A stretch of 64,000 nt of DNA from assembly GCF_001677475.2 (NCBI RefSeq), contig NZ_CP015229.1; one strand, written 5' to 3'. Source of the DNA: Escherichia coli (GTDB lineage Bacteria; Pseudomonadota; Gammaproteobacteria; Enterobacterales; Enterobacteriaceae). Below are positions 6,873 through 45,622 of this stretch, one piece after another. Within the stretch, counting starts at the first letter, position 1, and each line of letters begins with the position of its first letter. The notes below the pieces were generated by a model. That model was given only the letters and a program-made list of their open reading frames with translations. It was not told the origin of the DNA and did no database searches. A program made the translations under genes and the position numbers.

Positions 6873-7008
6873 TTATATTTATATACTCTAAATAATTCGA
6901 GTTGTAGGAAGGCGACAAGCGAGTGAATCCCTAGGAGCTTACGAAAGTAAGTGACTGGGGTGAACGAACGCAGTCGTAGTACATGCAACTTGAAGTATGA
7001 CGAGTATA
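6873..7008. repeat. ERIC/IRU element (enterobacterial repetitive intergenic consensus), copy 1
   Basis: Contains GTGAATCCCTAGGAGCTTAC and AAGTAAGTGACTGGGGTGAACG, matching the ERIC primer sites; imperfect palindrome; second copy at 25753-25880. Confidence 0.85.
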
Positions 7009-12341: not shown

Positions 12342-12800
<459 letters not shown>

Positions 12801-12810
12801 GTGAAATGTG

Positions 12811-12829
12811 CCGGATGCATCACATCCGG
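12811..12829. terminator. Bidirectional hairpin between convergent crl and phoE
   Basis: CCGGATGCATCACATCCGG hairpin between the two stop codons; REP-like. Confidence 0.6.
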
Positions 12830-12838
12830 CAATAATCA

Positions 12839-13894
12839 TTAAAACTGATACGTCATCCCAACCGCGACAATATCATCATTATTAATATTCAATTTGTTAT
12901 CGCTATCCAGTTGGTTGATTTTATAATCAACAAACGCTGACATATTTTTGTTGAAATAATATGTAGCACCGACGTCGATATAATTGACCAGATCTTCATC
13001 ACCGATACCTTCAATATCTTTCCCTTTCGATAAGACATAACCCAGCGATGGACGCAGACCAAAGTCAAACTGATATTGAGCGACCGCTTCAAAGTTCTGT
13101 GTCTTATTGGCAAAGCCGCCAGTTATTGGCGTCATTTTGCGTGTTTCAGAATAGAAAGTTGCCAGATAAATATTATTGGCATCGTATTTCAGACCTGTTG
13201 CCCATGCTTCTGCACGCTTGCCTGTGCCACGGCTTTGCAGATTCTGCTCGTTGGTGCGATCTGAGTTGGTATAGGCCCCACTAATGGCGAAATCGCTGCC
13301 GCCAAAGTCATATGTCAATGACGTGCCGAAGCCATCGCCGTTTTGCTTTTTAACGTCGCGGTTTTCGTTTTTCCCTTGATATTGCAGGGTTAAGTTCAGG
13401 CCATCGATAACGCCGAAGAAGTCGGTGTTCCGATACGTCGCCAGACCGCTGGCGCGTTTGGTCATGAAGTTGTCGGTCTGCGCCGAGGAGTCGCCACCAA
13501 ATTCCGGGAACATATCGGTCCAGGCCTCAACGTCATACAACGCGCCCAGGTTACGACCATAATCGAAAGAACCCAAATCTTTATATTTCAACCCGGCAAA
13601 AGCGAGACGCGTTTTTTGCTGTGCAGTATCACTCTCCGCTTTATTACCGGCAAACTCCGCTTCCCACCGACCATAACCCGTCAGTTGATCGTTAATTTGT
13701 GTTTCGCCTTTAAAACCAAAACGGATATAACTCTGGTCGCCATCTTTACTGTCGTTATCACTCATATAATGCATGGCTTTAACTTTGCCATAGACATCCA
13801 GTTTATTACCGTCTTTGTTATATATTTCTGCGGCCTGTACGGATGCAGATGCCACAATGCCCATCACCACTAATGCCAGAGTGCTCTTTTTCAT
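12839..13894 (-). CDS. phoE: Phosphate-starvation outer-membrane porin PhoE
   Basis: 351 aa from [21 protein letters not shown]; porin C-terminus ...AVGMTYQF; Pho box upstream. Confidence 0.93.
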
Positions 13895-13974
13895 TTTCAT
13901 TCCTGATTTTAATTAACGCGCGAATATTCAGCGGGAGAGTCCCGTTGAAAACAGGAAAGTTTTTAACCTGAGAT

Positions 13975-13993
13975 TGTTAAAGATATATTACAG
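13975..13993 (-). promoter_or_regulatory. Pho box (PhoB binding site) of the phoE promoter
   Basis: Minus-strand sequence CTGTAATATATCTTTAACA upstream of phoE; two CTGTAAT-like half sites. Confidence 0.8.
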
Positions 13994-14181
13994 ATTAATA
14001 ATATTCTTAAAATGTGGTAATTTATTAAATCTGTAATAAAAGCGTAAACAACTGCCGCTAGGCTTGCTGATCCCGCGCAACAAAACGCCATGCTTTGCTC
14101 GCAGATGGTTGGCAACCGACGACAGTCCTGCTAAAACGTTCGTTTGATATCATTTTTCCTAAAATTGAATGGCAGAGAATC

Positions 14182-15285
14182 ATGAGTGACAGCCAGACGC
14201 TGGTGGTAAAACTCGGCACCAGTGTGCTAACAGGCGGATCGCGCCGCCTGAACCGTGCCCATATCGTTGAACTTGTTCGCCAGTGCGCGCAGTTACATGC
14301 CGCCGGGCATCGGATTGTTATTGTGACGTCGGGCGCGATCGCCGCCGGACGTGAGCACCTGGGTTACCCGGAACTGCCAGCGACTATCGCCTCGAAACAA
14401 CTGCTGGCGGCGGTAGGGCAGAGTCGACTGATTCAACTGTGGGAACAGCTGTTTTCGATTTATGGCATTCATGTCGGGCAAATGCTGCTGACCCGTGCTG
14501 ATATGGAAGACCGTGAACGCTTCCTGAACGCCCGCGACACCCTGCGTGCGTTGCTCGATAACAATATCGTTCCGGTAATCAATGAGAACGATGCTGTCGC
14601 TACTGCGGAGATTAAGGTCGGCGATAACGATAACCTTTCTGCGCTGGCGGCGATTCTGGCGGGTGCCGATAAACTGTTGCTGCTGACCGATCAAAAAGGT
14701 TTGTATACCGCTGACCCGCGCAGCAATCCGCAGGCAGAACTGATTAAAGATGTTTACGGCATTGATGACGCACTGCGCGCGATTGCCGGTGACAGCGTTT
14801 CAGGCCTCGGAACTGGCGGCATGAGTACCAAATTGCAGGCCGCAGACGTGGCTTGCCGTGCGGGTATCGACACCATTATTGCCGCGGGCAGCAAACCGGG
14901 CGTTATTGGTGATGTGATGGAAGGCATTTCCGTCGGTACGCTGTTCCATGCCCAGGCCACTCCGCTTGAAAACCGTAAACGCTGGATTTTCGGTGCGCCG
15001 CCTGCGGGTGAAATCACGGTAGATGAAGGGGCAACCGCCGCCATTCTTGAACGCGGCAGCTCCCTGTTGCCGAAAGGCATTAAAAGCGTGACTGGCAATT
15101 TCTCGCGTGGTGAAGTCATCCGCATTTGCAACCTCGAAGGCCGCGATATCGCCCACGGTGTCAGTCGTTACAACAGCGATGCATTACGCCGTATTGCCGG
15201 ACACCACTCGCAAGAAATTGATGCAATACTGGGATATGAATACGGCCCGGTTGCCGTTCACCGTGATGACATGATTACCCGTTAA
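14182..15285 (+). CDS. proB: Glutamate 5-kinase
   Basis: 367 aa from [19 protein letters not shown]; amino-acid kinase fold plus C-terminal PUA-like region; the ORF from 14095 is a 5' extension. Confidence 0.95.
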
Positions 15286-15296
15286 GGAGCAGGCCG

Positions 15297-16550
15297 ATGC
15301 TGGAACAAATGGGCATTGCCGCGAAGCAAGCCTCGTATAAATTAGCGCAACTCTCCAGCCGCGAAAAAAATCGCGTGCTGGAAAAAATCGCCGATGAACT
15401 GGAAGCACAAAGCGAAATCATCCTCAACGCTAACGCCCAGGATGTTGCAGACGCGCGTGCCAATGGCCTTAGCGAAGCGATGCTTGACCGTCTGGCACTG
15501 ACGCCCGCACGGTTGAAAGGCATTGCCGACGATGTGCGCCAGGTGTGCAACCTCGCCGATCCGGTGGGGCAGGTGATTGATGGTGGTGTGCTGGACAGCG
15601 GTCTGCGTCTGGAGCGTCGTCGCGTACCGCTGGGGGTGATTGGCGTGATTTATGAAGCTCGCCCGAACGTGACAGTTGATGTCGCTTCGCTGTGCCTGAA
15701 AACCGGTAACGCAGTGATCCTGCGCGGTGGCAAAGAAACCTGTCGCACTAACGCTGCAACGGTGGCGGTGATTCAGGACGCCCTGAAATCCTGCGATTTA
15801 CCGGCGGGTGCCGTGCAGGCGATTGATAATCCTGACCGTGCGCTGGTCAGTGAAATGCTGCGTATGGATAAATACATCGACATGTTGATCCCGCGCGGCG
15901 GGGCTGGTTTGCATAAACTGTGCCGCGAACAGTCGACGATCCCGGTGATCACTGGTGGTATAGGCGTATGCCATATTTACGTTGATGAAAGTGCAGAGAT
16001 CGCTGAAGCCCTGAAAGTCATCGTCAACGCGAAAACCCAGCGTCCGAGCACATGTAATACGGTTGAAACGTTGCTGGTAAATAAAAACATAGCAGATAGC
16101 TTCCTGCCCGCATTAAGCAAACAAATGGCGGAAAGCGGCGTGACATTACACGCAGATGCAGCTGCGCTGGCGCAGTTGCAGACAGGCCCCGCGAAGGTGG
16201 TGGCGGTTAAAGCCGAAGAGTATGACGATGAGTTTCTGTCATTAGATTTGAACGTCAAAATCGTCAGCGATCTTGACGATGCCATCGCCCATATTCGTGA
16301 ACACGGCACGCAACACTCCGATGCGATCCTGACCCGCGATATGCGCAACGCCCAGCGTTTTGTTAACGAAGTGGATTCGTCCGCTGTTTACGTTAACGCC
16401 TCTACGCGTTTTACCGACGGCGGCCAGTTTGGACTGGGTGCGGAAGTGGCGGTAAGCACACAAAAACTCCACGCGCGTGGCCCAATGGGGCTGGAAGCGC
16501 TGACCACTTACAAGTGGATCGGCATTGGTGATTACACCATTCGTGCGTAA
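15297..16550 (+). CDS. proA: Gamma-glutamyl phosphate reductase
   Basis: 417 aa, aldehyde dehydrogenase-type fold, immediately downstream of proB. Confidence 0.95.
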
Positions 16551-16664
16551 ATAAAACCGGGTGATGCAAAACTAGCCATTTGATTCACAAGGCCATTGAC
16601 GCATCGCCCGGTTAGTTTTAACCTTGTCCACCGTGATTCACGTTCGTGAACATGTCCTTTCAGG

Positions 16665-16740
16665 GCCGATATAGCTCAGTTGGTAGAGCAGCGCATTCGT
16701 AATGCGAAGGTCGTAGGTTCGACTCCTATTATCGGCACCA
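16665..16740 (+). tRNA. thrW: tRNA-Thr (anticodon CGU)
   Basis: 76 nt GCCGATATAGCTCAGTTGGTAGAGCAGCGCATTCGTAATGCGAAGGTCGTAGGTTCGACTCCTATTATCGGCACCA; cloverleaf with CGT anticodon and encoded CCA end. Confidence 0.95.
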
Positions 16741-16754
16741 TTTAAATCAATAAG

Positions 16755-17021
16755 TTACACATCATTAGTACCTTCCTTATTTCTTGACTGGGACAAATTT
16801 GGGACCGATGGGTTCAGAATCGAGTCTATTTGCCGTGCGTGTTCGGTAAGGTGATTAGGTGCGAGGTGAGCATATCGACGAACCATTTCAAGAGTTTCCC
16901 ATCCTCCCATTTCTGTAAGTGCAAGAAGAGAAACACTGGACTGAACCAGCCTGCTTGCCTTTGCTATCAAAGTACCTTGAGGACCAGATGATTTCTGGCG
17001 ATATTTACAGCGCGTCCGCAA
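16755..17021 (-). pseudogene. Tyrosine-recombinase (phage/P4-type integrase) C-terminal remnant
   Basis: Only about 50 C-terminal residues are integrase-like ([34 protein letters not shown], with the catalytic Tyr region); no N-terminal or core domains upstream; adjacent to the tRNA attachment site. Confidence 0.65.
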
Positions 17022-17107
17022 TGAGTTTTTCTCCGTGCCGCCAGTGACGTTCCCCGCTTTTTCAGTGCGGCGATAATATCAGCGGGATGCCAGTCCTGTT
17101 GTGTCAT
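16966..17107 (-). pseudogene. Ner/Nlp(SfsB)-like HTH regulator, 5' fragment fused to the integrase remnant
   Basis: Begins [24 protein letters not shown], matching the Ner/Nlp N-terminus as recalled, then diverges and stops after about 46 codons; a Ner-like segment (LIAKA) continues in the integrase-remnant frame. Confidence 0.45.
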
Positions 17108-17574
17108 ACAACCACCTCGCTGATAAATTTTACGCCGTCGGCGGTGCGCAGCCAGCGCGGGGCTTTGAGTCCTTCCATGAAATACCAGACCAGTTCACAC
17201 AACAGCCCGGTCAGGGTTTGTTCCGTTTTTGGTTCCGCCGGGCGTTCCAGCAGAAGCTGGAGTAGTGCGAGGCAGTATTCGCACAAGGAATCTGGTTCGG
17301 AAATAAAGTGCTCTGGTGTGGCGGGAAGGGTATCAACGGTCAGGCTTTCAATCAGATGCGGCGGGATGGGGTCGTGCAGCGTGGGGTGCAATAGCGCAAG
17401 AGCCGCGTGAAGCCGTCCGCAGAGCGCTAGCCGTAGCGCGGGATCGTCGGTTTCGATCAGGGTTTCGGCGAAGCGGGCGCAGTAATCGGCAAGGACAGTA
17501 AAATCCGTGGTGGCATTGAAGGGGGCGGACAGCAGATCGAGTAAATCGCAGTCAGGGGTGAGGGTTGTAGCCAT
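17104..17574 (-). CDS. Hypothetical protein, 156 aa, acidic and Leu-rich, no recognised domain
   Basis: ORF with an AGGAGA Shine-Dalgarno about 7 nt upstream of the ATG at 17574 (longest ORF starts at 17628); stop overlaps the ATG of the Ner-like fragment (ATGA); GC-rich relative to the neighbouring RT gene. Confidence 0.5.
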   Translation of the reverse strand: MATTLTPDCDLLDLLSAPFNATTDFTVLADYCARFAETLIETDDPALRLALCGRLHAALALLHPTLHDPIPPHLIESLTVDTLPATPEHFISEPDSLCEYCLALLQLLLERPAEPKTEQTLTGLLCELVWYFMEGLKAPRWLRTADGVKFISEVVV

Positions 17575-17917
17575 AGGGCGTCTCCTGTAACGGTTTATTA
17601 TGTCCGCCACTAGAGAGGCTAATCTCATGGGGGGCGGAACCGGACGGGGTTAGCCTTACCGGCGTTACAGGAAACCGGCGCGTCTTGCGACGCCCCCGCC
17701 CGGCCCGCCATTGAGGTGTAGCCGAACGCACGACACAAAAAAGACGCTGGTGCGTCAAGTGTCGCCTGTAACGGTTTTCAGGAGGCTAATCCCGACGCCT
17801 GATTTTGCAGGCGCGGGAGAAAGATACTGCGATTGGTCATGAGTGGCAAGGGCTACATCCTGTTTACCGACATCTCACGCAAAAATACCCTGATTATTAA
17901 TAGCGAAAATCAGTTTC

Positions 17918-20900
17918 TTATTTTGGCGGTAGCTTTTTGCGGTTCTTTGCCAATTGGAATCCTTCAGGTAACGGTTTGAATTTATCGCCGCCTTTAGGCC
18001 AGCGTTTTGCCCTGCTCTGAAATGCCCTTAACGAGTCGATATCCAGTGTTGCAGCGATCACAAAGTCATTATCGCCGCCCTTCACACGAGCAATATCACG
18101 CATAAAGGGTTCTTTTGCCGGGGAACGTACGCGACTATCGCCGTATTTTCGGTTATTCACTAAAATGGTATAGGCATGAATATCCAGCGCTGCTGATTCA
18201 ATCAACGATGCAAACGTATCCAGATCTTTATTCCAGCTCAATACCATTAATGCATCGAGCGCGCCCTGAAAACGGATCCTCGCTTTACTATTCTGGAGTT
18301 CAGAGCAAATCATAACGCCAAAATTGACGCCGTGATGAATATATACCGGCTTACGTTGTTTAACATTAAGTGTCGAGTCCCAAGACTTACCATAAGTTGA
18401 AAATAATGCCTCATCTTCACCTACGGCGGGTTCCAGCTTGGGTTGCCATATTTTGACACTCGCTGGATAGCCGAGTCTGTTATCTGAAAGGACAAGTACG
18501 GCCTCACTCTTCAGTTGATTATCGCCTAAGTGGCGGTATTCTGTTCCCGCAATTAGACTGATACCCGCCGAACTCAAACGATCAGCAATACTGTTAACCC
18601 AGCGTAACGGGATTGAAAGCTCGGGGAATAAAACATAATCAGGTTTAGGAGATAGTTTCAATGTTGCATTAACCAGTTCAGAAATCCGCTGGTACCTTGA
18701 ACGGGACAAGTTAGATTTATTGCAGGCCATTTTAGCCCAGTCGTCTTCCTCTGTTTTAATGCTGGTTAGCGCAACGACAATTTTATGTTTCCTGTCAGTG
18801 CCAATATGAATGAATTTCTTAGGCCGAGCTTTTTTTGTCGCTTCATCTGAGTCCTGCTCCGATGCTAGTAACGTCGGTTTGATCCATACACCGCGTAATG
18901 CTTGAGTATATTTTGCCCAAACGGTGGACGGTCTCTCATCTGGTTTTTTGTCGGATGTAGAGGGTAATCCAACACATTCGGGGGCCAGTTCTGATATTTC
19001 AGCGGGAGTTAAAGGACGTGTAGGGAAAATGTAAGGTAGGTAACTTTCGTTCTTACGATTTCCTTTAGCCACTTTTTCCAGTCGGGTATTCTTGGTTGAT
19101 TTCAAAAATAGCTTAATAACGTCAATATCAATAAGCGATGAGTCCCTCATTAATTTCAGTATTTTAACTTCTTTTTTACGATCACGCTGATTAACAAGTT
19201 TTTCTGCCGACTGACTCTTTACGATCTGTTTATAAGGTTCCTTTGCTAAATCAGCTCGAGCTACCAATGGCGCTTTTAAATAAAAATCTGCTGAATCAAA
19301 GCGAAGATCCAGTAAATCCTTTAGATTTGTCAGACTTTGTGAAATATGATTAAAAAATGTATCCGCAAGGCACTCTTCTTTCTTTGAACGTTTATCAAGA
19401 AATAATCTGTCAGGACTGTAATATCGTGTCGCTGCATCAACAAATAGCCAGCTTAATGTGCCTTTTATACAGCGCCAAAGATCATTTACTGCTCGAGTTT
19501 TGCAACCATTTATAGTCACTTCCTTACCTGAAGTAATCACCGATGCCAACAGGTTGATGGACTCGTAAGCTTTAAGTACAATTTTTTCCGCGTGCTGCCA
19601 TTCATTCATACTGATAGCAAAGCCAAGCAGCCTTGGCAGATAACTAAAATGTGCAAATAGATTATCAGCCCTAAGAATATGGTTGTAGGCAAACTGATAA
19701 AACTCTTCCCGCTGTTCTTTCCATTCACTTGGAGACAGATCTCGTGCCAGTGTTTCAACGTAGCGTAATTGCAGTGACCAGCCCAAACGACGAATGGTTA
19801 ATCCATCCGCACGGCGCAGAGTATCGGCATTTTCACCTACACTACCGGCAGCGGAAAGGACTTTAGCTGCGGTGGAGTGTTCCAGTTGATCCGGTGAAGG
19901 CATCAAGCGGTGTTCACTAGAAAGCTCGTAGATCTCCTTTTCGATACTGTCGAGCAGATCTATTCCTGCCCTCCCTTGAAGCACGAAAAGTTTTTGCTTA
20001 TCGGATTGTAACTGGATGGTGGTCTTACCCTGGAAATGCTCGCCCTGCTGTATTTGCCATATTTGTTTTTTCTCGTTTTTCAGATAAACGCAATCATTGC
20101 CAAGCCTATCTTGCAGCAATAACATAAATTCGTGATTATTAGTAATTTTACCTGTATCGCGTATTACAAGGAACATATCATCGACATAACGACCGTAGTG
20201 AATTGGCGACAGTTTTTCAATGACTAATTTATCCCAATGGTGTAGCAATATATTGGAAATGATCCGACTGGCTGTTAATCCAATGACCAGACCACCATTA
20301 ATAACAGGTGTTTTGTACGCTATTTTTTTTCCAAATGCCGCTGCGCCGTCAGACCAGTGCTTTAAGAATACAGCTAACTGTGCAGTAAACGCTTTTTCAT
20401 GCTCAGTCAGTTTTATGTTTAGTGTGTTATAGAGATCATCAGAGGTTATAGCCAGTGGATCAATAAAATGATAGTAACTTTTTAAATCCAGTGAGGCGGC
20501 GATAATGTCACGATCTTTTTCCAACTCGTCACGTATAGCTTTTAAGCCATCACCACGCCATTTTTGGTAGGGCTGGAAATAGGGGCTAAAAGAACCCACG
20601 GCACTGATATGGAATGGATTATCCTGCTCATTGCTAAATAATTCATCATTACGAATACGTTTTAGCCGCGCGCCATAACAACAGTTGTCTAAGCTGGCAT
20701 CAAATTTATGCCCGACCATATTAATCCATAGTGCAGAGATAATGTGACTATCAACCGGGAAGTCACCAATAATACGAAACTCTGGTATCAGATCAAAATT
20801 ATTAAATAAATGGTCGGCTGCTCGTTTAGGATTAGAAAAGTGGACGTGTCCATTTTGGAATTCATGTTTTTTCTTTGTGGTTAATTTTTTCGGTAACAAA

Positions 20901-21127
20901 CGAAATTTGCCAATCAACTTCTTATTGCTACTGAATCCATCTTCGCTCTGCAAAATATCTAAGAGTTCTTGCAGGTTTTCAATTAATTCCTGCTCATACT
21001 CGGCAAATTTGATAGCAACAGGAAATGTATTCTCAAAGAAGCTATCGGCTTTGGCTTTCCGGTAAGCGACCAGAAGGTCTTCAATCGTCAGATCATCCCA
21101 GCCAGTGAAAGTTGCCTGATATGTCAT
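17918..21127 (-). CDS. Reverse transcriptase fused to a C-terminal nitrilase (CN-hydrolase) domain; UG/Abi-type defence-associated RT (DRT type 1 / UG1-like architecture)
   Basis: 1069 aa. RT motifs: motif A ASLDLKSYYHFID, motif B GLVIGLTASRIISNILL, motif C YGRYVDDMFLV (about aa 310-320). C-terminal ~280 aa carry a nitrilase-like Glu/Cys pattern (VLFPELSIP ... GVMICSELQ). AT-rich gene in an island next to a tRNA. Confidence 0.85.
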   Translation of the reverse strand: MTYQATFTGWDDLTIEDLLVAYRKAKADSFFENTFPVAIKFAEYEQELIENLQELLDILQSEDGFSSNKKLIGKFRLLPKKLTTKKKHEFQNGHVHFSNPKRAADHLFNNFDLIPEFRIIGDFPVDSHIISALWINMVGHKFDASLDNCCYGARLKRIRNDELFSNEQDNPFHISAVGSFSPYFQPYQKWRGDGLKAIRDELEKDRDIIAASLDLKSYYHFIDPLAITSDDLYNTLNIKLTEHEKAFTAQLAVFLKHWSDGAAAFGKKIAYKTPVINGGLVIGLTASRIISNILLHHWDKLVIEKLSPIHYGRYVDDMFLVIRDTGKITNNHEFMLLLQDRLGNDCVYLKNEKKQIWQIQQGEHFQGKTTIQLQSDKQKLFVLQGRAGIDLLDSIEKEIYELSSEHRLMPSPDQLEHSTAAKVLSAAGSVGENADTLRRADGLTIRRLGWSLQLRYVETLARDLSPSEWKEQREEFYQFAYNHILRADNLFAHFSYLPRLLGFAISMNEWQHAEKIVLKAYESINLLASVITSGKEVTINGCKTRAVNDLWRCIKGTLSWLFVDAATRYYSPDRLFLDKRSKKEECLADTFFNHISQSLTNLKDLLDLRFDSADFYLKAPLVARADLAKEPYKQIVKSQSAEKLVNQRDRKKEVKILKLMRDSSLIDIDVIKLFLKSTKNTRLEKVAKGNRKNESYLPYIFPTRPLTPAEISELAPECVGLPSTSDKKPDERPSTVWAKYTQALRGVWIKPTLLASEQDSDEATKKARPKKFIHIGTDRKHKIVVALTSIKTEEDDWAKMACNKSNLSRSRYQRISELVNATLKLSPKPDYVLFPELSIPLRWVNSIADRLSSAGISLIAGTEYRHLGDNQLKSEAVLVLSDNRLGYPASVKIWQPKLEPAVGEDEALFSTYGKSWDSTLNVKQRKPVYIHHGVNFGVMICSELQNSKARIRFQGALDALMVLSWNKDLDTFASLIESAALDIHAYTILVNNRKYGDSRVRSPAKEPFMRDIARVKGGDNDFVIAATLDIDSLRAFQSRAKRWPKGGDKFKPLPEGFQLAKNRKKLPPK

Positions 21128-21422
21128 GCGTTATCGTCCTTAGATTAAAGTCTGTACAGAATTAGCCAGCCGTTTCATGCCCGAAGGAGGTGCTCTTGAC
21201 ACCAGTAATCCATCAGTGAGGCTGGCAATAATTTTGATTTGTATCCATGTTACACGCTCCCCGCAACCAGTCCGAGCATATATTTGTCACATTTTTCCCG
21301 AAAGTGATTAAGTTTGAATTTTTTGTTTAATGTCGATTTTTAGTCGACAAAATGAGGAATAAGTAAATTATTTCTTGCTGTGGCGTATCCCTGAACCTAC
21401 ACTGGTTTAAATATTTGTACTA

Positions 21423-22226
21423 ATGTCTATTCAGGGGCGACATTTGCCAAATTATCTAAACTGGCTGATGCAGAATACGCTACCCGGTCAGGTGCTGCTC
21501 CAGTCATGGCTTACCCGCAACGGCGTAGATCGTAAGCTCTCTTACCTCTATGTCCAGAATGGCTGGCTCAGGCGGATCGCTCACGGCGTATACTGCCGGA
21601 CGGGTCGTGAACCGGACTGGGTGGACGCGGTTTACTGCCTGCAAACACAGTGGGAAAAGCCAGTACGGGTGGCGGGGCTAACCAGCCTTGCGCTTCAGGG
21701 CCATGCGCACTATACCGAACCGGGTAAGCCGCAAATCTGGCTCGCGCTTCCGGCTTACGTCAAACTGCCGGGATGGTTTGCTGCCTTCGAACAATCTGCA
21801 ACATTTATCACGCTGTATACATCGGGCCTTACCGTTGATGTCACGTCATTTACTACGGAACTGAAAATTGGCGACCGGCAGTTAGCAGGCAGTGCCCCGG
21901 AACTGGCCGCGTATGAGATCGCCTGCGGCGTTCCTTCGTTGATATCGTTCGAACATGCCGATGCTCTGTTTCAGGGGATGAATCTTCTCAGCCCGCGTAA
22001 ATTGCAGGCGTTACTCTGCGCCAGTCATTCGGTTAAAACCAACCGGGTGATGCTTTACCTTGCCCGGCGTAATGGACACCCTTATTTTCAGTATATTGAT
22101 CAAAGCGGTATAGAAACAGGTACGGGAAAGCGGCAAATCATACCCGGCGGCTGGCTGGAGCCGGATTATCAAATTACTGTTCCACGCGAATTTAAACCGG
22201 AAGGAGTCGAAGATGGATCTGCGTGA
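21423..22226 (+). CDS. AbiEi-family antitoxin / transcriptional regulator (type IV TA, abortive infection)
   Basis: 267 aa; N-terminal winged-helix pattern (LTRNGVDRKLSYLYVQNGWLRRIAHGVYCRTG) typical of AbiEi; overlaps the downstream nucleotidyltransferase gene by 14 nt. Confidence 0.65.
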   Translation: MSIQGRHLPNYLNWLMQNTLPGQVLLQSWLTRNGVDRKLSYLYVQNGWLRRIAHGVYCRTGREPDWVDAVYCLQTQWEKPVRVAGLTSLALQGHAHYTEPGKPQIWLALPAYVKLPGWFAAFEQSATFITLYTSGLTVDVTSFTTELKIGDRQLAGSAPELAAYEIACGVPSLISFEHADALFQGMNLLSPRKLQALLCASHSVKTNRVMLYLARRNGHPYFQYIDQSGIETGTGKRQIIPGGWLEPDYQITVPREFKPEGVEDGSA

Positions 22227-23133
22227 TAGCTATACCCGGCAGGTCAAACTGTTGATGGCCGCTCTGCCGCATGTGGCGAAGGAGTCCTGTTTCGCGTTGA
22301 AAGGCGGCACGGCAATCAATTTGTTTGTGCAGGATTTTCCCCGTCTGTCGGTGGATATCGATCTGGCGTATAAGACTTTTGCGGATCGCGATACCGATTT
22401 GACGGCGATCAACGACGCTTTGAAGAGAATTACTGCATCGCTGAACAGTAAACCGGGGATTACCGCGATTCGGCAGGAAAATAAAACGGATGAAAAGCGC
22501 ATCATTGTGAATACGGCTGATGCCCAGATTAAGATCGAGGTTAGTCCGGTCTGGCGTGGGCTGTTGTTGCCTCCGGCAGAAATGTCGGTGTGCGAACGTG
22601 TGGAAATGGAGTATGGCTTCACCACTATGAGTGTCGTTTCGCTGGCGGATCTTTATGGCGGTAAAATCTGCGCAGCGCTTGATCGTCAGCACCCGCGCGA
22701 TCTGTTTGATGTGCTGAATATGCTGGAGAAACCGGGACTGATGCGGGAGATCTTTGACGGTTTTCTTTGTTATCTGGCAGGCCATCCCCGCCCCATTGCC
22801 GAGTTGCTGGCCCCAAACTGGGATACAGAGCGGATCACGACGCTGTATGCCCAGGAATTTTCGGGGATGACTCAGCAGGAAACGTCGCTGGAATCGCTGC
22901 TGTCAGTAACGACTTTGCTGCCGCAGGCGTTGAAGTCACATCTTACGGATCTGGATCGCGAGTTCTTGCTCAGTTTTAAGCAAAACAGCCCTGACTGGTC
23001 GCGGTATCGCTATCCTGAAATTCAGCATCTTCCGGCTATTCGCTGGAAGCAACGCAATCTGGCGGTGCTTAAAGATAAAAATCCGGCGAAGTATGTGGCG
23101 GCGGTGAATAAGCTAGAGAGGGTGCTGGAGTAA
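22213..23133 (+). CDS. AbiEii/AbiGii-family nucleotidyltransferase toxin (DUF1814)
   Basis: 306 aa; N-terminal LKGGTAINLF and DIDLAY motifs of the AbiEii nucleotidyltransferase fold; translationally coupled to the upstream AbiEi-like gene. Confidence 0.75.
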   Translation: MDLRDSYTRQVKLLMAALPHVAKESCFALKGGTAINLFVQDFPRLSVDIDLAYKTFADRDTDLTAINDALKRITASLNSKPGITAIRQENKTDEKRIIVNTADAQIKIEVSPVWRGLLLPPAEMSVCERVEMEYGFTTMSVVSLADLYGGKICAALDRQHPRDLFDVLNMLEKPGLMREIFDGFLCYLAGHPRPIAELLAPNWDTERITTLYAQEFSGMTQQETSLESLLSVTTLLPQALKSHLTDLDREFLLSFKQNSPDWSRYRYPEIQHLPAIRWKQRNLAVLKDKNPAKYVAAVNKLERVLE

Positions 23134-23538
23134 TATTCTTAGCGCTGTTCAGGGACTCTGAATTGGGCCATGATGCTTTGGTTATATGAATAACTTCGTG
23201 GCCATAACTCAAACATATTCATTTAATTCAATACATAGCACCATCGAGTAAGAGATCGCTGAGTCATTAGACGATCTCTGCTCGTGGAAATACGAAACTA
23301 TCTCTTTCCAAAGCTGATCTGAATAACATTATCTGGAGCATCATTATTAGACCTGATGATCTCATGCTCAATAAAATCCCCCCATTTCAAAAAAAGATCC
23401 CGTAATTTTTCCGCCTGCTGCCCGACCTGATAAGTTCTGATTAATCTGTCTTTCGGAACATGATTCAACAGAAGTTCTATAAGCCGTTCTGGCGCATCCA
23501 GATACTCAGCACAGCCTGTAGAGTGCAGGTGCAGACAT

Positions 23539-24438
23539 TTAAGCCAATTGCTGCCGCCATTCCTTGACGTGGTCAATCAGGGCGCGGAGCTTTGGTGCAA
23601 TATTGCGACGCTGTGGGAAATACAGATAGAAGCCCGGAAATTGTGGAAGAAAGTCATCAAGCAGCGATACAAGCTTACCGCTTTCAATATATGGCCTGAA
23701 CGTTTCCTGAGTGGCAATTGTTATTCCTCCGCCGGCAAGAGCCAGCCTCAACATCAGACGCAGATCATTCGTCGTAATCTGCGGTTCAATCGCAAGGTCG
23801 AAAGCTCTACCGTTTTCTTCAAATGGCCAGCGATAAGGAGCAACCTCCGGGGACTGACGCCAGCCGATACACTTATGATTCACAAGTTCACGCGGGTGAA
23901 CAGGTGTGCTGTTGGCTGCGAGATAGGAGGGAGAGGCAACGACCATTTCACGCTGCCTGGCGGTAAGGGGAACAGCAATCATGTCTTTTTCAATGACCTC
24001 TCCGAGCCTTACGCCAGCATCGTAACCTGCGGCAACGATATCGAATTCCTCATCCGTGACAACAATATCAAGCGTAACGGCTGGATTGGCAGCTGCAAAC
24101 GAAGCGATTAGCGGACCTGAAAGAAATTCTTCTGCTATCGACGTCACCGCGATTCTGAGATGTCCACGTGGTACATGGTCAGAAACCATCTCTTCGAACG
24201 CTGCCTCAATACCGGATAAAGGTAATGACAACGATTTATGCAGCCGTTCTCCCGCTTCCGTCAAATTAACTGAGCGCGTGGTCCGCATTACAAGCATTGT
24301 CCCGAATGCATCTTCAAGGCGTCTTATTCCCTGACTGACCGCTGAACGGGTAACGCCCAGTCGTGCGGCGGCTTTACTGAAATTACTCTCTTCTGCTACC
24401 GCGATAAAAATGGGTAAAAGATTAAGATCGATTTTCAT
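23539..24438 (-). CDS. LysR-family transcriptional regulator
   Basis: 299 aa; N-terminal HTH (FSKAAARLGVTRSAVSQGIRRLE) and LysR substrate-binding domain; divergent from an SDR gene. Confidence 0.85.
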   Translation of the reverse strand: MKIDLNLLPIFIAVAEESNFSKAAARLGVTRSAVSQGIRRLEDAFGTMLVMRTTRSVNLTEAGERLHKSLSLPLSGIEAAFEEMVSDHVPRGHLRIAVTSIAEEFLSGPLIASFAAANPAVTLDIVVTDEEFDIVAAGYDAGVRLGEVIEKDMIAVPLTARQREMVVASPSYLAANSTPVHPRELVNHKCIGWRQSPEVAPYRWPFEENGRAFDLAIEPQITTNDLRLMLRLALAGGGITIATQETFRPYIESGKLVSLLDDFLPQFPGFYLYFPQRRNIAPKLRALIDHVKEWRQQLA

Positions 24439-24536
24439 TGTTTAATGCCGCTAACCACTGAGTACATTGAAAGCAGGATACTGGAACCAATCATAAAGTT
24501 CTATTATCTCTCCGAACACATTTGAAGGAGAACGTA

Positions 24537-25259
24537 ATGGATAAGGTCATATTAATCACCGGCGCATCAAGTGGTATTGGGGAAGGTATTGCCAGAGAAC
24601 TGGGAACGACAGGTGCGAAGGTTTTACTGGGCGCACGCAGAGTTGAGCGTATCGAAGCCATTGCAACCGAAATCTGCCTCGCAGGAGGAATTGCTAAAGC
24701 GCGGGAGTTGGATGTCACAGACCGACAGTCCATGGCCGATTTCGTGCAAGCAGCGCTGGATAACTGGGGGCGAGTTGATGTTCTTATCAATAATGCGGGC
24801 GTTATGCCGCTTTCACCGCTTGCAGCAGGAAAACAGGATGAATGGGAGCTCACTATTGACGTGAATATCAAAGGTGTACTGTGGGGAATTGGCGCTGTAC
24901 TTCCGGTGATGGAAGCACAGGGTTCCGGTCAGATAATCAATCTTGGTTCTATTGGTGCCCTTTCTGTTGTGCCCACAGGCGCAGTCTATTGTGCATCAAA
25001 ATTTGCAGTACGGGCTATTTCTGATGGCTTACGGCAGGAAAGCTCGAAAATCCGTGTGACCTGCGTAAATCCTGGCGTTGTCGAAAGTGAACTGGCTTCA
25101 ACCATTACCCATGTGGAAACCATGAAGGCAATGGACGCCTACCGTTCTGTTGCACTTCAACCCGCGGATATTGCCCGTGCTGTAAGGCATATTATTGAAT
25201 CTCCCGAAAGCGTTGATACAACCGAAATTACCATCAGACCCACTGCATCTGCAAACTGA
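24537..25259 (+). CDS. Short-chain dehydrogenase/reductase (SDR) family oxidoreductase
   Basis: TGASSGIG Rossmann motif and the S...YxxxK catalytic pattern (YCASK); start taken at MDKVILITG. Confidence 0.85.
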   Translation: MDKVILITGASSGIGEGIARELGTTGAKVLLGARRVERIEAIATEICLAGGIAKARELDVTDRQSMADFVQAALDNWGRVDVLINNAGVMPLSPLAAGKQDEWELTIDVNIKGVLWGIGAVLPVMEAQGSGQIINLGSIGALSVVPTGAVYCASKFAVRAISDGLRQESSKIRVTCVNPGVVESELASTITHVETMKAMDAYRSVALQPADIARAVRHIIESPESVDTTEITIRPTASAN

Positions 25260-25470
25260 AGAATAACTTTTACATTCACGTTTTATTAAATATGTCAGAA
25301 GGAAAATTTATATCCACCTGTTTTGCATAGCAAGATGCATTATGTATTGCTCACCCCGAAGGAGATGAAGTTTTAATTACAGAAGGAGTATTTTCTCTTG
25401 GAGTAAATATGGCTCATGTTTAATGCCTATGTATATAAAACTCATCCTCTCAATTGTCAGGAGAATTAAC

Positions 25471-25701
25471 ATGAATACTATCTGTTCTTTAATTGTTGTG
25501 GTTACACTGTCTTTATTATCATTCAGTAGCGTCGCCAAAACGATTACTGCCGTCGGTTCAACCATCGACAGCACTGAAAAAGAAATTTCTTTACAGGCAG
25601 AAAAACAAGGAAAATCATATAAAATTCTGGGCGCATTTTTCAAGAACAGAGTTTATATTATAGCAAAGTTAACACCAGTCAGTAAAAATGATGCTTCATA
25701 A
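25471..25701 (+). CDS. Small secreted DUF1471 (YdgH/BhsA/McbA-like) protein
   Basis: About 76 aa with a signal peptide (MNTICSLIVVVTLSLLSFSSVA) and a mature part resembling the BhsA/YhcN family; boundaries uncertain. Confidence 0.5.
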   Translation: MNTICSLIVVVTLSLLSFSSVAKTITAVGSTIDSTEKEISLQAEKQGKSYKILGAFFKNRVYIIAKLTPVSKNDAS

Positions 25702-25752
25702 GGCTCATGATATAATTTTTAAGACATGATCAAGAAGCACGTTTATTTATTC

Positions 25753-25880
25753 ATATACTCTAAATAATTCAAGTTGCAGGAAGGCGACAAGTGAGTGAAT
25801 CCCCAGGAGCTTACAAAAGTAAGTGACTGGGGTGAATGAACGCAGTCGCAGCACATGCAACTTGAAGTATGACGAGTATA
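25753..25880. repeat. ERIC/IRU element, copy 2
   Basis: Over 90% identical by eye to the copy at 6873-7008 (GTGAATCCCCAGGAGCTTAC ... AAGTAAGTGACTGGGGTGAATG). Confidence 0.85.
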
Positions 25881-26031
25881 ATTATCATTATTATGGCCAT
25901 GGAATACCTGACAAATGACGCTACCCCAACCTTCTGTACCAGTCGTTCTGCTAATTCTACCGATGCTTCGGTCTGGAGTGGTAGAGTAATATTAGACACA
26001 GTTTTATTTTCTCTCTTTTTCGAGGGCTGTA

Positions 26032-26297
26032 TATGAACAGGAAGAATACATCCCTAAGCGGTTAATGCTGGCGTAATCAATAGACCAGCATTAATCACAG
26101 ATGATTATCAATCAGACAGAAATGGTTAAATCGTCGAATTCATAATTAATACTTTTTGTAACGCCGCTGAATAGCTTGAAAAGGATGTATATTTTAAATA
26201 TCAGTGAAGTGAACAGTTTATTGCCGTTATTAATAGAAATGGAGGAATAAATACGCGTATTCTACTATTGCAACAAAAACAACGATATTGATCATTT
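26032..26297. repeat. Intergenic repeat module, intact copy (two halves contiguous)
   Basis: First half matches 44674-44784 and second half matches 45478-45622 (for example TATTTTAAATATCAGTGAAGTGAACAGTTTATTGCCGTTATTAATAGAAATGGAG); contains an internal inverted repeat TTAATGCTGG...CCAGCATTAA. Confidence 0.7.
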
Positions 26298-26527
26298 TTC
26301 ATAATGAAGTAACCTGACAGATATAAAAATGTTGATTGAGGCTAAATGCCCGGATGAAGGTTGTCGAGGGAGCCAGGTTGTTTTTTCTTTTGGATGATCT
26401 CCATTGCTGGATAGTCCCCTTGTACAGATAAGTCTGCTCTTTCTCGCTCAAAGCAGACCCTGGAATTGAACGCAGAGTGACTACCTGACACAATATTGCA
26501 CCGTGAAGAGTCGGTCGTTGTTAACGT

Positions 26528-27412
26528 TCAGATTTTCAATGTATCAATGACCATCCGCAGAGCGGGGGAGACGTTGCGATGAGGGTAATAGAGAAACAAT
26601 CCCTCCATTCGCAGGCTGTAACGCTGCAACACTCTGATAAGCTTACCGTGTTCTAAATCATCCGCGACCAGTTCAACAGGAACATAGGCCAATCCGAGGC
26701 CCAGCCGGGCTGCTTCTGCTTCCATATAGCTGTCGGATAAGGCCCATTGCCCTTCAGGGCGATGAGTGATTTTTTTATCATCCTGATTGAGTTCCCACTG
26801 GTATACGCTGCCGTCGGCAAACTGATAGGCGATACAGGGATGCGCCTTTAAATCCGCCGGGGTTTGCGGAAAACCATAGCGACGAAAATGTTCCGGAGTC
26901 CCCACAATTGCCATCTCCATATCGGGCGTGATGCGTACCGCGACCATGCCCTGACCGACTTCAGGCCCCAGGCGGACACCTGCATCGAATCTTTCCTCGA
27001 TGATATCGACGAACCGGCTCTCATTTATCAGTTCAAGCCGGATATCAGGATATCGCTGTTTAAATACCGCCAGCTTTGGCAGCAGGCATTTATCAATCGC
27101 GTGCTGGCTGGCATTGATACGCACCGTGCCGGAGGGCGTCTCTCGATAGTGCGCCAGCGTGGCAAGCCCAAGATCTAACATTTCAAATCCAGATGCCGTC
27201 TTCTGGTAGAGCTGCTCGCCTGCTTGTGTCAGCGACAGTTTACGCGTGGTGCGCACTAGCAGCTGGACGCCCAGCCTTTCTTCAAGCTCGCGAACAGAAC
27301 GGCTGACTCCTGACTGAGCAAGACCCAGCCGCTGAGCTGCTGCGGTAAAGCTGCCTTCCCGCACCACCTGCATAAACAGGTACAGCTCGTTGTAGTTCTC
27401 CCTTTTCGCCAT
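26528..27412 (-). CDS. LysR-family transcriptional regulator (position of K-12 yagP)
   Basis: 294 aa, HTH (FTAAAQRLGLAQSGVSRSVRELE); divergent from a hydrolase/MFS gene pair. Confidence 0.85.
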   Translation of the reverse strand: MAKRENYNELYLFMQVVREGSFTAAAQRLGLAQSGVSRSVRELEERLGVQLLVRTTRKLSLTQAGEQLYQKTASGFEMLDLGLATLAHYRETPSGTVRINASQHAIDKCLLPKLAVFKQRYPDIRLELINESRFVDIIEERFDAGVRLGPEVGQGMVAVRITPDMEMAIVGTPEHFRRYGFPQTPADLKAHPCIAYQFADGSVYQWELNQDDKKITHRPEGQWALSDSYMEAEAARLGLGLAYVPVELVADDLEHGKLIRVLQRYSLRMEGLFLYYPHRNVSPALRMVIDTLKI

Positions 27413-27598
27413 TGAAACATCCCCCCTTCATGCCGGCAATCTCCGCATTAATTTATAACAATATGGTATTAATCTTAGCATTAATCGCCCCCTAATCAGC
27501 ACTAATTCTGCTCATTATAATGACCCCATCAAAGCAAAGCACCGCAGCGTTGTCCGTCGGAAACCTGTATCTCTCTGTTGTTTTTTATGGGGATTTTT

Positions 27599-28735
27599 AT
27601 GAAAGCCTTCACCCGAACGCTAAAAACCGCGATGCCGACCATGTTGCTTTTCGCATCATTAAGTGGAGTCACGACAATGAGTTATGCTGATTCAACCAAT
27701 CCTAATGCCCCTGTGTCCATGACAGATAAATGGGATAAAACGTTCGCCGAGAGCCAGAAAGTCGATCACCGTAAAGTCTCGTTCCCGAACCGATATGGCA
27801 TCACCTTAGTGGGCGATCTTTACCTGCCTAAAGACCGTGGCGATCGCAAACTGGCGGCGATTGCGGTCAGTGGGCCATTTGGCGCGGTGAAAGAGCAATC
27901 CAGCGGCTTGTATGCGCAGACGCTGGCGGAACGAGGGTTTGTTACCCTGGCGTTCGATCCTTCTTACACCGGGGAAAGCGGCGGCTATCCGCGAAACGTC
28001 GCCTCACCGGATATCAACACTGAAGATTTCAGCGCGGCGGTGGATTTCTTAGGGCTGCAAAAAGAGGTAGATCGCAACCGTATCGGGCTGCTCGGTATTT
28101 GTGGCTGGGGCGGCATGGCGCTGAACGACGCGGCGATGGATACCCGCGTTAAAGCGGTAGCTACCAGCGTGATGTATGACATGAGCCGGGCGATGGGTCA
28201 TGGTGTGGGGGATGGCAAAGACCGTTATTCTATCGCCGACCGTCGTGCTGTTCTGCAATATCTGAATGAACAGCGCCGGAAGGATGCGCAGAGCGGAACG
28301 TTCGCTCACGGTGGTCATGATATTAATGTCGATAGCAACGGCAAGGTCAGTGCTGGCGAGCGCATTCTGCCAGAAACGCTGCCGGCAAATCCTCATCCGG
28401 TACTGAAAGAGTTCTTTGACTACTATCGCATGCCGCGCGGCTTCCACGAACGTTCCGTTAACTCTACCGGGGCGTGGACGGCAACGATGCCGCTGTCATT
28501 TATGAATATGCCGCTGTTGAGCTACGCCAGTGAAATCACCATTCCGACGCTGATTGTGACCGGTGAGAAAGCACATTCACGTTATTTTGCTGAAGATGCT
28601 TACAAGGCGGTTGGCAGTAAAGACAAAGAGCTGGTGGTGGTACCAGGGGCAAATCACGTGGACCTGTACGATAACGTGGCCGGAAAAATACCTTTCGCGA
28701 AGTTCGAACAATTTTTCCAGACCAAACTGAAATAA
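27599..28735 (+). CDS. Secreted alpha/beta-fold hydrolase
   Basis: Signal peptide, then an alpha/beta hydrolase-like core (GICGWGG nucleophile-elbow-like motif); start taken at MKAFTRTLK. Confidence 0.7.
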   Translation: MKAFTRTLKTAMPTMLLFASLSGVTTMSYADSTNPNAPVSMTDKWDKTFAESQKVDHRKVSFPNRYGITLVGDLYLPKDRGDRKLAAIAVSGPFGAVKEQSSGLYAQTLAERGFVTLAFDPSYTGESGGYPRNVASPDINTEDFSAAVDFLGLQKEVDRNRIGLLGICGWGGMALNDAAMDTRVKAVATSVMYDMSRAMGHGVGDGKDRYSIADRRAVLQYLNEQRRKDAQSGTFAHGGHDINVDSNGKVSAGERILPETLPANPHPVLKEFFDYYRMPRGFHERSVNSTGAWTATMPLSFMNMPLLSYASEITIPTLIVTGEKAHSRYFAEDAYKAVGSKDKELVVVPGANHVDLYDNVAGKIPFAKFEQFFQTKLK

Positions 28736-28810
28736 AACCTCTCCTGAATTGATGCAAAGCCACCGGTCTATGGCAGGTGGCTTTTATCCTGATCTTTGTG
28801 AAATTTCACT

Positions 28811-30004
28811 ATGTCGACACTAAGCCAAACACTATCACCTCATCATCAGCGCGCATACTGGGGCGGTATTTTTGCCATGACCCTGTGCGTGTTTGTGCTG
28901 ATTGCTTCTGAATTTATGCCCGTCAGCCTGCTCACGCCGATTACCCGCGATTTAGGCGTGACGGAGGGGCTTGCAGGGCAGGGGATTGCTATCTCCGGCG
29001 CGCTGGCGGTTCTGACCAGCCTGACGCTTTCAACGCTAGCTGGAAAGATGAATCGTAAGTTCCTGCTGCTGGGGATGACGGTTCTGATGGCCGTATCGGG
29101 GCTTATTATTGCGCTGGCTTCCAGTTATCTGATGTATATGGTCGGTCGTGCGATGATTGGGGTGGCCATTGGCGGTTTTTGGTCGATGTCAGCGGCAACG
29201 GCGATTCGTCTGGTGCCGCAGCATCAGGTTACGCGTGCGCTGGCGATTTTCAACGCCGGTAATGCGCTGGCGACGGTCGTGGCCGCGCCGCTGGGAAGCT
29301 ATCTGGGGGCCACGGTCGGATGGCGAGGCGCTTTCTTGTGCCTGGTGCCTATCGCGGTTGTCGCCTTTATCTGGCAGTACATCAGCCTGCCCAGTATGGA
29401 TGCGAATAAAAGCCACACGTCAGCTGGCGATGTATTCCGCATACTTAGCCGCCGCGTGATTGCGGTTGGCATGCTGGCCTGCGGCCTGTTTTTCATGGGG
29501 CAGTTTGCACTATTCACCTATGTGCGCCCGTTTCTGGAGTCGGTGACACGGGTTAATTCCTTAGGCTTGTCGTTGATTTTGCTGATTATCGGCGTGGCCG
29601 GTTTTATTGGCACGCTGGTTGTTTCGGCATTTCTCAACAGAAAATTCTACCCCACGCTGATGGCCATACCCGGACTGATGGCCGTCATTGCTATCGGTCT
29701 GATGCTTACCGGGCATCACGTCTGGACGGTCTCGCTGCTGTTAGGACTCTGGGGCATGCTGGCCACCGCCGCGCCAACCGGATGGTGGACATGGATTGCG
29801 CGTACGTTGCCTGACAACGCCGAAGCCGGAGGCGGCCTCATGGTCGCGGTGATTCAGCTCGCCATCGCCCTTGGATCAACGGCAGGAGGCATCGTGTTTG
29901 ACCGCCTTGGCTGGCAGAGTACGTTTGCCATGAGTAGCGTGCTGCTCCTTTGCGCGGGCGTACTGACCTTTGTTACCGCACGCCAGAAGGCCGGTGCGTT
30001 TTAG
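28811..30004 (+). CDS. MFS-family transporter
   Basis: 397 aa, about 12 predicted transmembrane helices, MFS-like loop motifs. Confidence 0.8.
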   Translation: MSTLSQTLSPHHQRAYWGGIFAMTLCVFVLIASEFMPVSLLTPITRDLGVTEGLAGQGIAISGALAVLTSLTLSTLAGKMNRKFLLLGMTVLMAVSGLIIALASSYLMYMVGRAMIGVAIGGFWSMSAATAIRLVPQHQVTRALAIFNAGNALATVVAAPLGSYLGATVGWRGAFLCLVPIAVVAFIWQYISLPSMDANKSHTSAGDVFRILSRRVIAVGMLACGLFFMGQFALFTYVRPFLESVTRVNSLGLSLILLIIGVAGFIGTLVVSAFLNRKFYPTLMAIPGLMAVIAIGLMLTGHHVWTVSLLLGLWGMLATAAPTGWWTWIARTLPDNAEAGGGLMVAVIQLAIALGSTAGGIVFDRLGWQSTFAMSSVLLLCAGVLTFVTARQKAGAF

Positions 30005-36019: not shown

Positions 36020-36033
36020 TGTAATGAATGATA

Positions 36034-36060
36034 AAAATGGCGCAAATACAGCGCCATTTT
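36034..36060 (+). terminator. Hairpin terminator downstream of yagU
   Basis: AAATGGCGCAAATACAGCGCCATTT stem-loop followed by a T-run. Confidence 0.65.
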
Positions 36061-36265
36061 TATAGGTTAAAAACATTGCTTTTTATATTCTGATGCAGCT
36101 AGTCAGTGAGCATATCGCGCCACTTCAGGATGATGTAGATCCGAAGAACGCTACAGAAGAGAGGCATTGTTGCTGGCAAATAGAAGAAGTTTCGGGTTTT
36201 GTTGCCCCTAAAAACGAAGCCCCGCTATTACAGTAGGCGGGGCAGTGCAATTAATTATTGCATAT

Positions 36266-44378: not shown

Positions 44379-44673
44379 TCAGTCATCTGTGCGCATTACT
44401 CTAACTGGCACTCGAACGTCGGCGATGGGGTTGCCGGTGGATCAGGCTGTTCCTGTGGCGTAAACGTTTTTATGTTAGTACCAACAGATTTACCACATTT
44501 ATCATCTTAACAGTTTGAGTGAAAATGCAGGCTGCGCCGCAAAGGGAGGAGACTGAGTGGCGTGTTCAGTCTAAAAGAGAGTTGATGCCAGCATACAGGG
44601 GCGAAGCTGGTCAACAAGTCAACATTAAGATAATGGAATATTCGGAGAGAAACGTCAGGCAGTTGGCCTCAAA

Positions 44674-44784
44674 TGAACAGGAAGAATATATCCCCAGGAA
44701 AATTAATGTTGGTGTTATAAACACACCAACATTAATCCGATCTGATTATTAATCAGACAAATATCGTTAATCCGTCGAATTTTG
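44674..44784. repeat. Intergenic repeat module, split copy, first half
   Basis: Matches 26032-26140 (ATGAACAGGAAGAATA...CCGTCGAATT); ykgO/ykgM follow directly. Confidence 0.7.
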
Positions 44785-44786
44785 AA

Positions 44787-44927
44787 TCAACGTTTTTTCT
44801 TACGACCCTGAACGGCCTTAAAACGTGGATTAGATTTACAAATCACATATAGCCGTCCTTTTCGCTTCACAATCTGACAGTCTGGATGGCGTTCTTTTGC
44901 GGTACGCAGAGAGTTAAGGACTTTCAT
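44787..44927 (-). CDS. ykgO: 50S ribosomal protein L36 paralogue, zinc-independent type
   Basis: 46 aa [46 protein letters not shown]; start overlaps the ykgM stop by 1 nt. Too short for the ORF track; found by manual translation. Confidence 0.9.
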
Positions 44928-45477: not shown

Positions 45478-45622
45478 ATATAATAATTACTTACAAAAAG
45501 GGAGAGGATGCATATTTTAAATATCACTGAAGTGAACAGTTTATTGCCGTTATTAATAGAAATGGAGAAATAAATAGGCGTATTCTACAATTGCGACAAA
45601 AACAACGATATTAATCAGTTTA
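45478..45622. repeat. Intergenic repeat module, split copy, second half
   Basis: Matches 26141-26297 (TATTTTAAATATCACTGAAGTGAACAGTTTATTGCCGTTATTAATAGAAATGGAG...AACAACGATATT). Confidence 0.7.

Follow-up and report, generated by a model that had tools for sequence, protein, structure and literature searches.

The 64,000-nt stretch of Escherichia coli DNA analysed here (the window) contains a genomic island at thrW and two short repeats of the ERIC family, one on either side of it. This arrangement raises the question of whether the right-hand repeat took part in building or rearranging the island, or whether it arrived separately at a site that the island had nothing to do with. We address this through the identity of the repeat, the position of the island boundary, the relation between the two copies and the state of the same site in other genomes.

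Identity of the repeat

The right-hand repeat, 127 bp reading TATACTCTAAAT...ATGACGAGTATA, is an ordinary full-length ERIC/IRU, a non-autonomous, MITE-like repeat of the Enterobacteriaceae (copy 2; Table 1). It is bounded by 7-bp terminal inverted repeats (TIRs; TATACTC/GAGTATA) with TA at both termini, and ERIC is described in the literature as a 127-bp element with a 7-bp TIR, a target-site duplication and 5′-TA-3′ termini (PMC2229807, Table 1; PMC3184786). A sequence-only reading of this DNA had called an ERIC at 25753-25880; the call was correct and its coordinates were accurate to 1 bp.

At gathering thresholds, Rfam returned no match on 25754-25880 and no ERIC family among its matches; hence, family membership was tested through the consensus, the structure and BLAST. 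The core differs from the 44-nt consensus at three positions, a level of matching reached by 0/100 shuffled controls, and the primer sites within the element carry one mismatch (ERIC1R) and two mismatches (ERIC2); the core consensus and ERIC-PCR primer sequences used for scoring are what we take to be the standard versions. The predicted + strand RNA folds into one long hairpin over the whole element (MFE -56.5 kcal/mol, z = -9.5), with a value of -47.7 kcal/mol (z = -7.6) for the - strand. Independent support for the family assignment comes from BLAST, as most E. coli genomes contain ERIC loci that it matches over the full length at 95 % identity or more. Near-full ERIC copies (at least 80 % of the element) are present in 5,425 of 5,426 E. 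coli genomes, at a median of five places per genome at megablast stringency.

Two short ORFs, 25869-26036 (+, 55 aa) and 25811-25999 (-, 62 aa), start or end within the ERIC. They are unannotated in relatives and are probably chance products of the ERIC insertion.

Table 1. Positions in the window of the ERIC copies, the thrW island and the genes flanking copy 2
Feature	Position	Strand	Basis or remark
ERIC copy 1, yafP-rtcB intergenic region	6882-7008	+	polymorphic site among E. coli genomes
thrW island, degenerate P4-like remnant	16759-23521		synteny boundaries
LysR, left of ERIC	23539-24438	-	annotated relatives
SDR oxidoreductase	24522-25259	+	annotated relatives
Small ORF, 76 aa (92 aa counted from 25423)	25471-25701	+	hypothetical in RefSeq
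ERIC/IRU element, copy 2, 127 bp	25754-25880	+	ERIC2-primer sense on + strand
Left terminal inverted repeat, TATACTC, starting with TA	25754-25760	+	sequence
Conserved central ERIC core with ERIC1R and ERIC2 primer sites	25795-25838	+	41/44 consensus match
Right terminal inverted repeat, GAGTATA, finishing in TA	25874-25880	+	sequence
ykgR-like paralogous segment, downstream 'repeat module'	26033-26298		RefSeq: truncated ykgR
LysR, right of ERIC	26528-27412	-	annotated relatives

The thrW island and the genes around the repeat

Annotated E. coli relatives give the gene order as thrW, the island, LysR, SDR, the small ORF, the ERIC site, a ykgR-like remnant, LysR, an alpha/beta hydrolase, an MFS transporter and paoDCBA. 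We searched the window for a second copy of the thrW 3′ end (attR) and found none; the island edge was therefore set by synteny, using BLAST maps of four E. coli loci (S1-ZIM-01-A, Combat11I9, 98210 and TUM13936) against the window. S1-ZIM-01-A, which has an empty thrW site, is homologous to the window up to 16758, just past thrW, again at 23522-23770, and then from 25943 onward. Combat11I9, with a different prophage at thrW, shows an attR-like partial thrW copy (matching 16695-16758) followed by the window from 23524 onward. Two loci carry the same island: in 98210, position 23134 is joined directly to 26066, while the collinearity of TUM13936 with the window spans 12702-25753 and 25880-29877. 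The island junctions accordingly fall at 16758/16759 and 23521/23522.

By this synteny, the LysR-SDR-small ORF block at 23522-25753 is chromosomal backbone and not island cargo, and the ERIC lies 2.2 kb past the right end of the island. The earlier placement of the repeat near the right edge of the island, where its cargo ends, is not supported: comparison with S1-ZIM-01-A and Combat11I9, which lack this island, sets that edge at approximately 23521. Two other elements of that description hold: the setting is AT-rich (GC content of 0.34-0.38 in the flanks vs 0.49 for the whole window), and the repeat module said to lie about 150 bp downstream is the ykgR-like segment, which begins at approximately 26033.

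The genes of the island comprise integrase fragments, an ash-family gene, a 1069-aa reverse transcriptase, AbiEi/AbiEii and a further integrase fragment. The reverse transcriptase (17918-21127, -) has an end-to-end match to PADLOC RT_UG5-nitrilase (DRT; 1031 bits) and is followed by AbiEi (21423-22226, +) and AbiEii (22213-23133, +); the predicted cargo is an anti-phage defence cluster made up of the DRT UG5-nitrilase reverse transcriptase and AbiEi/AbiEii. Rfam matches to C4 antisense RNA (17627-17715, -) and isrK (17737-17814, -) lie beside the integrase and ash-family remnants, consistent with the island being a decayed P4-like satellite. Several E. coli strains carry this thrW island at approximately 96 % identity.

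Immediately to the left of the ERIC, the small ORF encodes a protein with a signal-peptide-like N-terminus, and its stop codon lies 52 nt upstream of the element. No Pfam match was returned for this ORF; its likeness to BhsA is weak, resting on an NCBIfam match (E = 9e-5) below the curated cut-off. To the right lies the ykgR-like segment, which RefSeq annotates as a ykgR pseudogene truncated at its N-terminus. It has 93 % identity to 45505-45621 (117 nt) and approximately 74 % identity to 44673-44823 (150 nt), these two pieces being separated by approximately 680 bp. Further downstream, past the pao/yagU region, there is a full-length Rfam IS009 match (193 bits; 36025-36223, +).

Relation between the two ERIC copies

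A sensitive BLAST search across the window detected no ERIC copy or fragment other than those at 6882-7008 and 25754-25880, both of which are intergenic. The sequence-only reading had described a near-identical copy at 6873-7008; such a copy exists and its right end was exact, but its left end had been set 9 bp too far to the left. The two copies are identical at 119/127 positions (93.7 %), and 8/8 differences are transitions. A 140-nt repeat detected at both places takes in a further 12 nt to the left of each copy; we considered these as part of the element and rejected this, as the same bases are present in empty alleles. The positions of the eight mismatches likewise led us to reject compensatory changes within the hairpin.

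Copy 2 matches the ERIC that lies within rpnD (yjiP/yjiQ region, between mdtM and yjiR) of 34 E. coli genomes at 100 % identity; in most of the other genomes, the best ERIC copy reaches 95-99 %. Since it matches the rpnD ERIC perfectly and copy 1 at only 93.7 %, the likeness between copies 1 and 2 reflects shared family membership only, and by its sequence copy 2 appears as a general copy of the ERIC family, not a local duplicate of copy 1. Both copies in the window and the one in rpnD have identical TATACTC...GAGTATA termini. In E. coli E308 (L005, 3001-3127, between mdtM and yjiR), this ERIC with 100 % identity to copy 2 divides the Rpn-family gene (YhgA-like 'putative transposase') into two pseudogene halves and so represents an intragenic insertion. 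The association of ERIC with the nuclease/transposase-like rpnD gene is probably coincidental.

Copy 1 is an old polymorphic E. coli ERIC, with three allele classes at its site in the species: the full 127 bp (including a K-12 record), a 72-bp internal deletion falling between short AGTCG repeats, and an empty site. The adjoining rtcB-prfH locus is pseudogenised in some strains.

Filled and empty alleles at the copy 2 site

The filled junction (431-bp query, at least 80 % coverage) was found in 0/5,426 complete E. coli genomes. The reconstructed empty site, by contrast, is matched at 80 % or more by 426 E. coli genomes, and the full-length matches that we sampled align in one piece. In alignments with Combat11I9 and with TUM13936, a clean gap of 125 columns falls precisely at the element; the ERIC thus displays presence/absence polymorphism at an orthologous site between otherwise collinear flanks, as expected of a MITE. 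A metagenome scan with the right flank returned four contigs, 4/4 of which carry the empty, E. coli-like allele.

The filled allele belongs to the window's own lineage. Public assemblies encoding exactly the same small protein were located at eight distinct places, 98.65-100 % identical to the window, and 8/8 sampled contigs of this lineage either carry the ERIC or break off within it; short-read contigs tend to end at repeats. The ERIC is invariant in the two full-length copies that we checked (contigs no more than 0.8 % from the window), and the partial copies on broken contigs are also without differences. One assembly near-identical to the window is GCA_019142445.1.

For the core genes of the window (pepD, gpt, frsA, crl, phoE and proBA), the best identity among the 5,426 complete E. 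coli genomes is approximately 96.2 %, and that of the island is approximately 96 %. These values suggest that the window comes from a separate Escherichia lineage, approximately 96-97 % identical to E. coli and possibly a cryptic clade. On present sampling, the ERIC appears fixed within this lineage and absent from E. coli proper, whereas the island architecture is common to both.

The proposed role in rearrangement of the island

The sequence-only reading had proposed that repeats at this position could have mediated the rearrangements that shaped the island. In such a model the two ERIC copies, or copy 2 together with other copies, would serve as substrates for homologous recombination that produced the island and its right junction. 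In favour of this model, the copies are direct repeats, 18,872 bp apart and equally oriented, on either side of thrW and the island; in addition, E. coli tends to rearrange just to the right of the ERIC (breakpoints at 25943 and 26066), and ERIC-like repeats have been suggested to add to plasticity in Xenorhabdus (PMC3184786). However, exchange between direct repeats in these positions would delete the stretch from pepD through proBA, thrW and the island, and would not build an island, and the longest run of perfect identity between the copies is 28 bp, which is marginal for RecA-dependent exchange.

The comparative alignments point the same way. Across strains with an empty, a different or the same thrW island, no island or deletion junction coincides with 6882-7008 or 25754-25880, and the strains that do have breakpoints lack copy 2. 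TUM13936, Z1323CEC0003 and F2_81 share the architecture of island and flanks but lack copy 2; TUM13936 is collinear with the window and has the same island, only the element being missing. Given that no junction lies at an ERIC, that the shared identity is so short and that exchange would remove the island, we regard a recombinational role for the repeats as very improbable, and the proposal finds no footing at the breakpoints themselves (23134/26066 and 23770/25943), neither of which is at an ERIC.

These two deletion junctions, in 98210 and S1-ZIM-01-A, respectively, are independent of each other and remove all or part of the LysR-SDR-small ORF block. The right ends of both deletions fall between 60 and 190 bp to the right of the ERIC site, and neither strain has the ERIC. 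The AT-rich stretch at 25.9-26.1 kb looks deletion-prone with or without the element.

Probable origin of the insertion

The best explanation of the observations as a whole, to which we assign a probability of approximately 0.8, is that the island and its flanks had already taken their shape when the ERIC inserted in an ancestor of the window's lineage, and that the element had no detectable part in shaping the island. Mobilised in trans by a putative transposase, the element would have entered an AT-rich intergenic site in the backbone, 52 nt downstream of the small BhsA-like ORF. None of three reviews (PMC2229807, PMC3184786 and PMC10969869) reports a transposase for ERIC. Readthrough from the upstream gene would then place a long, stable hairpin in its 3′ UTR, where it would probably be neutral or alter the stability of the mRNA modestly.

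The junction bears on how such an insertion might have occurred. The filled allele reads TTCA-TA-[TACTC...GAGTA]-TA-ATTATC, with 123 bp between the two TAs and a net gain of 125 bp, which is compatible with a 123-bp body plus a duplicated TA. Simple duplication of a TA predicts TTCATAATTATC for the empty site, whereas every sampled empty allele reads TTCAAAATTATC, with AA in place of the expected TA; the duplication model therefore needs an additional substitution or a junction that is placed slightly differently. The empty alleles of copy 1 (SMS-3-5 and A3) do show TA at their junction, and the rpnD copy is likewise flanked. Insertion at the copy 2 site may thus have proceeded by TA duplication.

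The distribution of alleles could also be read in the opposite direction, with the ERIC ancestral at the site and E. coli sensu stricto having lost it precisely in its stem lineage, through either excision or deletion. All filled alleles are in one lineage and all empty ones in E. coli; with no outgroup to compare, and if the filled lineage is the sister group of E. coli as a whole, a single loss requires no more steps than a single gain. Two scans of the GTDB representative genomes, among which the source genome is not included, returned no outgroup locus; one used a right-flank 30-mer and the other a degenerate pattern built on the YKILGAFFKN motif in the small ORF. Deletions of ERIC do happen in E. 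coli, as the 72-bp internal deletion and the empty alleles at the copy 1 site illustrate. At the copy 2 site, however, the empty allele contains no ERIC remnant and has the length of a simple pre-insertion site, an exactness that random deletion would rarely achieve. Copy 2 is, moreover, identical to the rpnD member while the flanking intergenic DNA is 5-6 % different from that of E. coli, which weakly favours a younger insertion, the comparison covering 127 bp. We consider precise loss quite unlikely on these grounds, and gain of the ERIC in the window's lineage would better account for the site.

Insertion in an ancestor of the window's lineage might, further, have been fairly recent. The copy is clean and full-length, fixed in one lineage, absent from the E. 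coli genomes searched and 100 % identical to the rpnD copy; on this basis, we tentatively suggest that the filled/empty pair may record a fairly recent transposition in Escherichia from an active or recently active source sequence, a possibility that we hold to be less probable than its opposite.

A possible role in the 3′ UTR

The location of the ERIC downstream of a gene invites the idea that it has been co-opted as a regulatory 3′-UTR hairpin of the BhsA-like gene, where it would stabilise or destabilise the mRNA or bring about partial termination, and has been kept by selection. It lies close behind the stop codon, and a consensus scan around the element detected no terminator-like site between the small ORF and the ERIC, and promoter-like sites at chance level only. 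The fold is very stable, and the element is invariant in the full-length and partial copies of the lineage that we checked, but 0 changes over 127 bp at a divergence of no more than 1.3 % is statistically not meaningful.

A precedent comes from Yersinia, in which, as summarised in PMC2229807 and PMC10969869, ERICs at gene 3′ ends change transcript levels by way of an RNase E site in the TIR; those summaries describe the effect as orientation-dependent (De Gregorio 2005). The Yersinia mechanism needs both the right orientation and ribosomes that unmask the site, whereas here the stop codon is 52 nt away, a gap that would make unmasking by ribosomes unlikely. Co-option under selection is therefore in our view unlikely, and the inserted ERIC is probably neutral or, at most, a putative 3′-UTR hairpin.

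Comparison with other repeat families

Copy 2 agrees with ERIC/IRU as known (Wilson and Sharp 2006) in its 127-bp length, imperfect palindrome, 7-bp TIRs with TA termini and conserved core, and in being an intergenic, multi-copy element whose presence varies among strains and lineages. It is a known MITE-like repeat at a new insertion site, and only this site, between the BhsA-like small ORF and the ykgR remnant and without the element in the 5,426 complete E. coli genomes searched, sets it apart from known ERICs.

Among other families, the REP/BIME elements of E. coli are similarly intergenic, palindromic, transcribed and able to stabilise upstream mRNA, but REPs are approximately 35 bp, GC-rich, clustered and mobilised by RAYT (TnpA-REP), none of which applies to copy 2. 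Correia/NEMIS of Neisseria and RUP of Streptococcus pneumoniae are unrelated to ERIC in sequence, and for RUP a mobiliser of the IS630 family has reportedly been proposed. Like ERIC, both are small, non-coding, TIR-bounded and TA-flanked MITEs that form hairpin RNAs, and they are often co-transcribed at gene 3′ ends (PMC2229807); for copy 2, its position suggests the same. Correia transcripts are cleaved by RNase III (PMC10969869).

Significance

Taken alone, the insertion is of little importance. Its analysis removes a tempting but unsupported link between the repeat and the evolution of the island, and places the actual right-hand limit of the thrW island at approximately 23521. Beyond this, the locus offers an ERIC insertion that is clean, diagnostic for a lineage and paired with known empty alleles. 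Such pairs are raw material for understanding how ERICs move, and may help to explain why short-read assemblies from the window's lineage break at this spot. If the transposition was indeed recent, a census of lineage-specific ERIC insertions could define target-site rules (AT-rich, TA) and point to the mobilising transposase.
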